Assembly: GCF_006345805.1 (NCBI RefSeq)
Contig: NW_021835149.1
Location: forward strand, 1-37,396
Direction of reading: 5' to 3'
Length of the DNA stretch: 37,396 bases
Source of the DNA: Octopus sinensis
Lineage: Eukaryota
The translations under genes and the position numbers were made by a program. A model generated the notes under the pieces. It had not been told where the DNA came from. It searched no databases and worked only from the letters and a program-made list of their open reading frames with translations. Shown here in pieces: positions 4,069 to 29,719 of this stretch; the stretch's first letter is position 1, and each line of letters opens with the position of its first letter.

Positions 4069-4440
4069 AGCTAAAGTATTGATTCTTAAGCATTTTTCTT
4101 TCATGACCCCATTTTTCACCACGAGATTTTTCGCGACCCCAGATATTAAATATAAGTTTGTGAAATTACATATATTTATTTCGGTCATTTGGCTGAATTT
4201 AATTTTCGCGACCTCATTTGGGGTTGTGGCCCATAGTTTAAGAAACGCTGAGCTAAAGTATTGATTCTTAAACATTTTTCATCCATGACCCCATTTTTCA
4301 TCACGACATTTTTCGTGACCCCAGGTATTAAATATAAGTTTGTGAAATAACATATAGTTGTTTCGGTCATATGGTTGAATTTAATTTTCGCGACCTCATT
4401 TGGGGTCGTGGCCCATAGTTTAAGAAACGCTGAGCTGAAG
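4069..4440. mobile_element. Two tandem copies of a 174-bp hAT/Charlie-like MITE (period 182 bp)
   Basis: Units 4077-4250 and 4259-4432 are near-identical and end in GTTTAAGAAACGCTG (rc CAGCGTTTCTTAAAC, Charlie-type TIR). They are bounded by 8-mers AGCTAAAG / AGCTAAAG / AGCTGAAG. Confidence 0.75.
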
Positions 4441-4583
4441 TATTGATTGTAGACCCTTTTTAATGTATGAATCCCTTTCATTCCTAATTTTACTCGGGTG
4501 GATCCTCATAGCCATTCGATGTTTAAAATGTCCCGTTATATTTTCATCCGTAAATATTATTAGGAAATGTACGAAATATTCAA

Positions 4584-5023
4584 GTAAAGATTGTTTGCCA
4601 ACATGACATGGCAGTCCTGGTTTAGGACTAATGTTGCTGTAATTTAGCCCCAGGAGACATTGTCTCCAGCTGGCTATACGATACACTCTGTGTCCTTATA
4701 TTTTCGAACAAGGGAATCTAGCACTCCCCACTCAGCTCAAAATAATATCTGTGTATCGCGATTTCAGGGTTATTTCTCTTCATCAGCACCGAATAATTGT
4801 TCGGCTAAAGGTGGTGCTGCCAAATTCCTGTTCGAAATATATAGGTTTCAAAGTGGCAACTAGTTACTGATTTATAAATTAGAAAATTACTATTTTTAAA
4901 TCTCACAACGTCAGATATTCAGCAAACCAGGACTGCCATGTTATGTCGTCAAACAATCTTTACTACAAAGTACTGTTGCTGAATATCTCACATTGTGAGA
5001 TTTACAAATAGTAATTTTCTAAA
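4584..5023 (-). mobile_element. Non-coding Penelope-like/retrozyme-like insertion with internal inverted repeats and a hammerhead motif
   Basis: Flanked by 15-bp near-direct repeats GTACGAAATATTCAA (4569-4583) and GTACGAAACATTGAA (5024-5038). Inverted pairs about 4583-4625/4923-4965 and 4879-4925/4976-5022. Contains the hammerhead core listed next. Confidence 0.6.
4749..4791 (-). ncRNA. Minimal type-I hammerhead ribozyme motif
   Basis: Minus strand cgGTG-CTGATGA-AGAGaaataaCCCT-GAAA-TCGCGA-TA-CACag. Intact CUGAUGA/GAAA/UH core, stem I GUG:CAC, stem II 3 of 4 bp, palindromic stem III (AUCGCGAU), predicted cleavage after AUA. Confidence 0.72.
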
Positions 5024-5329
5024 GTACGAAACATTGAAATATTTTGTGTATTTTAAAAGTGTGACCAAGTTTATAGCACATAAATTTTAACCAGAAAATA
5101 CTGTATTGACCCCAAAGAGTGTTACGGACCCCGGGTGAAAGCCACAGAGCCAAAAGAAGAGACTCAACTCAGGATTCAGGATTTGGATATCCAAAGGGGA
5201 TTTGCGTTTATTCTAGAAGTAAATAAATGCAATGATTAACCGGAAAGTTTCATATAATTTAAAGATGAAAAGACAATATGTTGTGAATTTCATGACTAAC
5301 TTTAATTAATGTAACTGAGGTAAGTGAAG

Positions 5330-28569: not shown

Positions 28570-29719
<1,150 letters not shown>

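Follow-up and report, generated by a model that had tools for sequence, protein, structure and literature searches.

A 440-bp stretch at positions 4584-5023 of an Octopus sinensis contig (NW_021835149.1; "the window" denotes the whole 37,396-nt stretch analysed) interrupts a MITE, lies between duplicated target bases and carries part of its own sequence in inverted orientation. What kind of element is it, and how were its two opposed arms made? An initial annotation had read it as a non-coding retroelement bearing a hammerhead ribozyme. Our analysis shows it to be an old copy of a non-coding repeat with a predicted hammerhead, the two arms of which were likely made by a borrowed Penelope-type RT/endonuclease that primed on both strands of a staggered cut with the repeat's RNA as template.

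The insertion and its host element

The insert is a 440-bp copy of a dispersed non-coding repeat with a 353-nt unit, and the site has the following layout.

4441..5147, plus strand: host hAT-type MITE, 252 bp after subtraction of the insert and of one target copy; terminal inverted repeats degenerate
4566..4583, plus strand: left copy of the target duplication, its final bases overlapping the site-A end of the insert
5021..5038, plus strand: right copy of the target duplication, its initial AA overlapping the site-B end

That these 440 bp are an insertion follows from the host family, since many of the 19 host copies examined join the left flank directly to the right flank with the insert absent; the nesting in a hAT MITE described by the initial annotation thus stands. 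The host family, a repeat of about 255 bp, shows the short terminal inverted repeats and the 8-bp duplication of a hAT-type MITE (match at 6 or more of 8 positions in four of the eight copies with good ends), "hAT" being the name that we take to belong to its end motif. The window's own host copy has degenerate ends and no 8-bp duplication. A flanking duplication of 13/15 had been noted for the insert itself (4569-4583/5024-5038, the left 15-mer included), and we found that it extends to 15/18 (4566-4583/5021-5038). The reported lack of a convincing open reading frame was likewise confirmed, the longest ATG-started ORF in the insert being 22 aa. Contigs from two DNA runs with differing organism labels span both insert junctions, with one difference each, and the contigs of a third DNA run do not contain the window flanks.

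Two other features of the window were recorded. Immediately to the left of the host MITE lies a 182-bp tandem duplication (4069-4432; 93%), the units of which each terminate in what is presumably a hAT-like end motif. Decayed LINE-like reverse transcriptase fragments, with translations judged by eye, lie at 28690-29196 and 1213-1689.

A dispersed family of 353-nt units

The initial annotation had treated the 440 nt as the repeat unit; the unit proved to be 353 nt long, occurring in head-to-tail arrays of 353-nt period with nothing between units. Both tandem copies, each with a hammerhead, and dispersed monomers are present (loci L027, L025, L095, L060). A search of the 2.72-Gb genome returned 3231 family candidates, 40 of which were scored. 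A degenerate 34-letter hammerhead motif had at least 392 exact matches genome-wide (none for the reversed control), which establishes the insert as multi-copy; the true family count must be higher, because this pattern matches only 21 of 35 well-preserved units. The unit has a GC content of 0.37, and its longest open frame, when looped, is 73 codons. The looped unit folds at -120.5 kcal/mol, compared with -77 +/- 6 kcal/mol for mononucleotide shuffles, and the whole insert is strongly structured (z -10.7), for which the inverted arm accounts in part.

Divergence of copies from the family consensus is 4.0% at non-CpG sites and 27% at CpG sites; for the long arm of the window copy it is 5.3%. 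The overall difference is 7.8%. After insertion they decay roughly neutrally: changes hit the hammerhead core at 10/471 positions (2.1%) and the remainder at 587/15907 (3.7%), a difference that is not significant (P = 0.08; arms below 85% identity were left out before this count and before the count, given below, of arms that cross the unit junction).

We further identified a sister family with a 352-nt unit (183 identities in 374 columns against the 353-nt unit), the copies of which are younger (94-99% alike), insert into TA repeats and are likewise two-armed (L161-L190, e.g. L164:1555-1818). Complex copies also occur (L063, L023, G000:C10064), in which a two-armed insertion and a target copy are duplicated in tandem, or partial units form arrays of ~165 bp period. 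Two flanking fragments (L109, L110) were resolved as a piece of the sister family and as a short, separate copy.

A predicted extended type I hammerhead

The ribozyme candidate lies on the minus strand of the long arm.

4742..4800, minus strand: predicted extended type I hammerhead, damaged in the window copy
4786-4780, 4765-4762 and 4755-4754, minus strand: core, matching the motif as CUGAUGA, GAAA and UA
4792-4787/4753-4748, minus strand: helix I, with a distal helix at 4800-4796/4746-4742
4779-4766, minus strand: helix II
4762-4755, minus strand: helix III, an 8-nt palindrome

The intact core and palindromic stem III lie where the initial annotation had placed them, and our predicted cut falls at the same position, 3' of A4754. 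Its description as "canonical minimal" was imprecise, the predicted structure being an extended type I, in which an internal loop separates the 6-bp helix I from a distal helix of 5 bp. Of 36 units taken from the 30 best-match loci, 32 have an intact type I core (CUGANGA / GAAA / UH) and 17 retain the core together with all stems. In the family fold, helix II is 3 bp long with A.G as its closing pair, and helix III is palindromic. The conserved G10.1-C11.1 closing pair is absent, its place being taken by A.G in the family, A-U in the window copy and U.U, A-U or G.U in the sister family; an axolotl hammerhead family with a U.U mismatch at the helix II closing position is described in the available part of PMC7229834. 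The window copy has four substitutions, one in helix I (4790), one in helix II (4777) and the others at 4766 and 4743, and the modelled pairing probability of its helix I is 0.02 alone and about 0.25 within the whole insert. Its hammerhead is predicted not to fold, and the copy is probably inactive.

Taken alone, the loose core pattern occurs at chance level (1 match, 0.97 expected), the isolated 51-nt motif folds no better than shuffles (z +0.8), and the Infernal-type check proposed earlier was silent, no Rfam hammerhead model matching the insert at E up to 10 and only microRNA-family noise arising from microsatellites and hairpins. The case for a hammerhead rests on the family, namely on the 392 motif matches against none and on covariation. 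In a hand-picked alignment of 10 sequences from three families, representing about three independent lineages, 95.9% of the cells in the hammerhead helices were paired and 11 of 17 pairs showed compensatory change, stem covariation being one of the checks that the initial annotation had proposed. Helix III is self-complementary in three related families despite three different sequences, and a palindrome that is kept while its sequence changes matters only for a dimer. In silico, the consensus dimer reached -44.1 kcal/mol compared with twice -18.7 kcal/mol, with strand-swapped double-hammerhead pairing. The earlier suggestion of cleavage as a dimer fits both the kept palindrome and this predicted fold.

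We also asked whether arm ends record cleavage. Among 28 unselected arms that reach the cut, six stop 4-10 nt downstream and 19 pass, a weak hint that cleaved templates may have been used alongside uncut or rejoined ones. Arm 5' stops within -5 to +12 of the cut number nine (one a duplicate), 4.5 times the average rate (P = 7e-5). This cleavage footprint is weak, and pausing is an alternative, as stops are raised along the whole paired rod.

The genome is rich in hammerhead-like motif families. A third related unit (L203:2880-2943, minus strand; L150) has a hammerhead with yet another palindromic helix III, and further unrelated hammerhead-like motifs, many with a palindromic helix III, lie in the flanks of L145, L147, L152, L162, L187, L189 and L190.

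Two arms with paired end sites

Numbering unit positions from the predicted hammerhead cut resolves the insert into two arms.

4583..4925, minus strand: long arm, 343 nt, unit positions 182-353 followed by 1-170, ending at fixed site A
4878..4879, minus strand: internal unit junction at position 228/229, where site-B sequence is followed directly by the beginning of the next unit, with no intervening ORF
4924..5022, plus strand: short inverted arm, 99 nt, unit positions 130-228, ending at fixed site B
4964..5022, plus strand: tail of about 59 nt bounded by sites A and B, within which 4965-4975 lacks a long-arm counterpart

Both inverted-repeat pairs noted in the initial annotation exist (4583-4623/4924-4964, 93%; 4868-4925/4976-5033, 86%), but they belong to a single structure, an inverted arm whose tail lies on one side only. 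The arms of the window copy are joined 5'-to-5', with 13 unit positions found only in the short arm and 256 only in the long arm.

Across the family, arms end near unit position 169 (site A) or 228 (site B), and the two sites are almost always paired. Of 74 two-armed junctions, 56 were A+B (one of these being a local duplicate, L063), none was A+A or B+B, and 18 had one or both ends undefined. A+B accounted for 26 of 29 junctions at the 30 best-match loci and for 30 of 45 at 58 loci chosen solely by the hammerhead motif, where 14 others had one undefined end and one had two. One-armed copies, read by eye, ended at A in six cases, at B in six and at an undefined site in three; since they use A and B equally, independent choice by each arm would be expected to give same-site pairs about half of the time. 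Counter-selection of perfect palindromes seems a weak cause of the missing A+A and B+B classes, on the reasoning that A+B copies also carry long inverted repeats. The sister family, counted without three assembly duplicates, gave 12 A+B among 14 two-armed copies, one unassigned and one true B+B (L171), and has a tail of 43-46 nt. In three DNA runs, contig ends accumulate at 4583, where they break off into diverse flanks, as they also do, for site B, at 4878 or 5022. Either the A or the B arm may be the longer one, and the arms overlap at their junction by a few bases, most commonly 3-4. In 20 of the 56 A+B insertions, the window copy included, each arm holds unique sequence, which goes beyond what fold-back copying can produce; the remaining 36 are nested and do not discriminate. 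Together, these copies display a Penelope-like insertion layout, that is, an inverted 5'-truncated arm and a one-sided tail between two fixed ends.

Polymorphic markers were used to compare templates, the comparisons not being independent of each other. In the 353-nt family, the arms of one insertion differed at 18/79 markers (23%), compared with 44% between loci; in the sister family they differed at 5/68, again against 44% between loci. Tandem units within one arm differed at 15/70 markers in the 353-nt family and 4/43 in the sister family. As the 23% between arms exceeds the overall 7.8%, either mixed templates or fast-mutating sites are indicated. A strict rolling circle of a single monomer as the sole template is unsupported by the within-arm differences, which later mutation and local duplication blur.

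Target-site microhomology

Target duplications scoring at least 6 accompanied 32 of the 56 insertions, compared with 0.15% of 2000 mismatched flank pairs. Their length varies, mostly about 12-13 bp, and exceeds the 4 bp given for retrozymes. We anchored 50 insertions (six of the 56 had no good anchor or were duplicated), 26 of them with confident register. At the A junction the target-derived letters were T in 17, T in 18 and G in 14 of these 26 (background T 0.33, G 0.19), and at the B junction A in 14 and A in 18 (background A 0.30). TTG and AA match the RNA at sites A and B, respectively. As read from these junctions, the footprint would fit a staggered double nick, with both 3' ends pairing by 2-3 bases.

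RNA reads

A search of sequencing runs listed no RNA data set as carrying the sequence. About 6% of each of three RNA runs was searched, all of them standard cDNA libraries with an organism label that may not be O. sinensis. Each run yielded 1384-1834 family reads, equal in both orientations, of which 65-73% run into unrelated sequence; the window flanks drew almost no reads in the one run examined for them. No pile-up at the cut site, and no shared start or end of reads, was seen in these three runs (possibly from other species), and back-joints in the reads from these subsampled cDNA libraries fit arrays as well as circles. The RNA reads are thus compatible with passive read-through, and such libraries are also compatible with circles. 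A loose read end, considered as a sign of a longer element, had no match in the O. sinensis genome.

Search for an autonomous driver

The 353-nt element itself lacks the RT + GIY-YIG ORF of an autonomous Penelope-like element, and the genome carries intact ORFs of this kind (about 780 aa). We obtained 5029 GIY-YIG candidates and scored 150, reading 30 loci and 20 long stretches, and retrieved 30 loci of a second clade by protein. In the 80 loci examined, no terminal repeat resembled the 353-nt unit over more than 18 nt, apart from separate copies of sister repeats, so the linkage to an RT/GIY-YIG ORF envisaged in the initial annotation was not found. The second clade (30 loci) had no convincing hammerhead downstream of the ORF and no link to the unit. 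Diagnostic unit motifs were also absent from the Craig 2021 supplement (PMC8557442), as far as its available part extends, except for one match in unrelated GC-rich sequence. As no driver was found, we infer Penelope-type mobilisation from the insertion footprint.

The search also brought up a Penelope-like element (L141, L144) whose repeat contains a hammerhead-like motif with a long helix II. This element has two overlapping long frames, one of 479 aa and one of 781 aa (RT/GIY-YIG), and at L141 a 5.9-kb tandem period. An abundant decayed GIY-YIG family (L191-L220) has two kinds of 3' sequence after the ORF, and no canonical hammerhead was found downstream of it.

A model for the two-armed insertions

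We propose the following course of events. The template would be a multimeric or circular unit RNA, and the hammerhead would cut multimers as a dimer. In AT-rich DNA, a GIY-YIG endonuclease would nick the two strands at positions offset by about 12-13 nt, and the exposed 3' ends would read TT or TTG. One 3' end would pair over 2-3 nt at site A and the other at site B, about 59 nt downstream, and each would prime a cDNA; the microhomology footprint is seen at the junctions, and the chemistry is conjectural. The two cDNAs would stop at variable points and join by microhomology of a few bases, which would yield the inverted arm, the one-sided tail and the target duplication. Biochemistry offers a parallel in the Poseidon protein of Anolis, which, according to the portion of PMC11167929 available, nicks and extends both strands, prefers AT-rich targets, is predicted to form a dimer and initiates at two internal positions, between which the tail lies. 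Points that would fit less well with the proposed course are the missing driver, the single B+B copy of the sister family (L171) and the 36 nested insertions, which fold-back could also explain. The 23% marker difference between arms, the RNA reads with no pile-up at the cut and a catalytic core that is not significantly better preserved than the remainder of the unit also count against it.

The inverted arm might instead come from a single priming event followed by self-priming, in which either the cDNA or an antisense template folds back; the accessible text of PMC3846280 proposes such an origin for head-to-head junctions of Penelope. Junction overlaps of mostly 3-4 bases, markers shared between arms and the nested majority all agree with such copying, but it does not account for the 20 insertions with sequence unique to each arm, for target microhomology to a specific RNA site at both ends, or for the freedom of either arm to be the longer. 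We regard it as quite unlikely and favour twin priming, since allelic markers are shared between arms and 20 of 56 insertions are non-nested. A closer relative of twin priming would have the two events take place on two RNA molecules, one per enzyme subunit, the A/B asymmetry being set by the protein complex. The arms usually overlap in template range, so a single RNA would need strand displacement, and the 23% marker difference between arms in the 353-nt family points the same way. Against this, sister-family arms agree at 63/68 comparisons, compared with 56% between loci (a pattern that could also arise on two RNAs if each burst had a single dominant source locus), and differences between tandem units inside one arm are as frequent as those between arms (15/70 and 18/79). 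On balance, two RNAs appear unlikely.

Explanations that dispense with a non-coding retroelement fare worse. The copies could in principle be truncated terminal repeats of a coding Penelope-like element, a class whose insertions include tailed, inverted terminal stubs, as reported in the parts of PMC8557442 and PMC3846280 available. This very unlikely reading is largely refuted by the gapless 353-nt arrays and by the course of the arms: 52 of 175, the window copy among them, cross the unit junction with unit sequence on either side, and only three end near it. Since no frame exceeds 73 codons either, we do not regard family copies as stubs of a coding element. Inverted ends and a target duplication would also be expected of a DNA transposon, a fold-back element or a satellite whose hammerhead-like motif is incidental, and this reading would sit well with the chance-level loose core and the silence of Rfam. 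However, the ends are asymmetric, the internal junctions vary, both arms are variably 5'-truncated, the duplications vary around about 12-13 bp, and the helices covary between families, which together make this the most improbable of the alternatives.

Extending twin priming by a borrowed enzyme to the enzymes themselves, we tentatively put forward, as an idea that may well prove wrong, that Penelope-type enzymes carry out programmed twin priming, in which one complex makes cuts ~12 nt apart and each strand uses its own site on a single, probably circular, ribozyme-processed RNA.

Relation to known elements and significance

Judged by its sequence features, the 353-nt family is best described as a metazoan non-LTR retrozyme, a non-autonomous Penelope derivative. 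Its unit is non-coding, falls within 150-450 nt, is low in GC and has no LTR structure. The multi-copy non-coding unit and the insertion footprint bear out the initial annotation in proposing a non-autonomous, hammerhead-bearing retroelement family of the Penelope/retrozyme kind. The non-LTR retrozymes described in the available text of PMC7229834 and 10.64898/2026.07.22.740005 are alike in their type I hammerheads, low GC (37% here), occurrence from monomers to multimers, target duplications above 4 bp and co-occurrence with Penelope-like elements, and mussel units measure 350-390 nt. Inverted two-armed insertions with fixed paired ends, seen in the 353-nt family, do not appear in the retrozyme text available from these two sources. 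Circular RNA and cleavage have been demonstrated for mussel and coral retrozymes, according to the same partial texts, whereas the 353-nt family is known from sequence and its ribozyme is predicted.

Endonuclease-bearing Penelope-like insertions (PMC3846280 and PMC8557442, in their accessible parts) share the inverted 5'-truncated copy, partial tandems, one-end tail, short overlap at the inverted junction and target duplications, theirs being 8-10 bp. The 353-nt family differs in having no ORF and a tail of about 59 nt (43-46 nt in the sister family) compared with their 30-40 nt, and its data favour twin priming where self-priming was proposed in 2013 (PMC3846280). Poseidon PAc of Anolis, as far as the consulted sections of PMC11167929 describe it, is similar in that two internal starts downstream of a hammerhead bound the tail, both strands are nicked and extended, and the target is AT-rich. 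PAc is protein-coding, and according to those sections its start site did not differ by strand and target homology was not seen, whereas every insertion of the 353-nt family combines an A end with a B end and carries target microhomology of 2-3 nt. Of the hammerheads defined earlier, the canonical metazoan type I and the minimal Penelope forms (PMC4209133, part of the text) resemble ours in the 6-bp helix I and the short palindromic helix III, predicted to be dimer-dependent; ours differs in its A.G closure of helix II, in lacking G10.1-C11.1 and in not being of the minimal type with short helix I and long helix II. The open literature, to which our search extended (most subscription papers and Repbase were beyond its scope), yielded no description of the 353-nt family or of the one-A-one-B rule.

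As an element, this is a common sort of genomic parasite from a class already described, in a lineage for which the open literature searched gave no account of one. Its value lies in the mechanistic record that its insertions preserve. In the published view, as far as the available texts go, the tandem and inverted structures of Penelope arise through undefined steps, with antisense self-priming offered, and the 2024 biochemistry has two starts that are unlinked to the two ends. From the nearly strict A+B rule, the symmetry of the microhomology and the occurrence of arms that are not nested, a sharp and cheaply tested prediction follows for a reconstituted reaction, and the insertion footprint ties animal retrozymes to Penelope enzymes beyond co-occurrence alone. 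The sister family offers the best material for work on cleavage and circles. If twin priming is true, the inverted arm and one-sided tail of Penelope, long unexplained, would directly record two starts used once each, and 353-nt retrozymes would be ready-made minimal substrates for this reaction.
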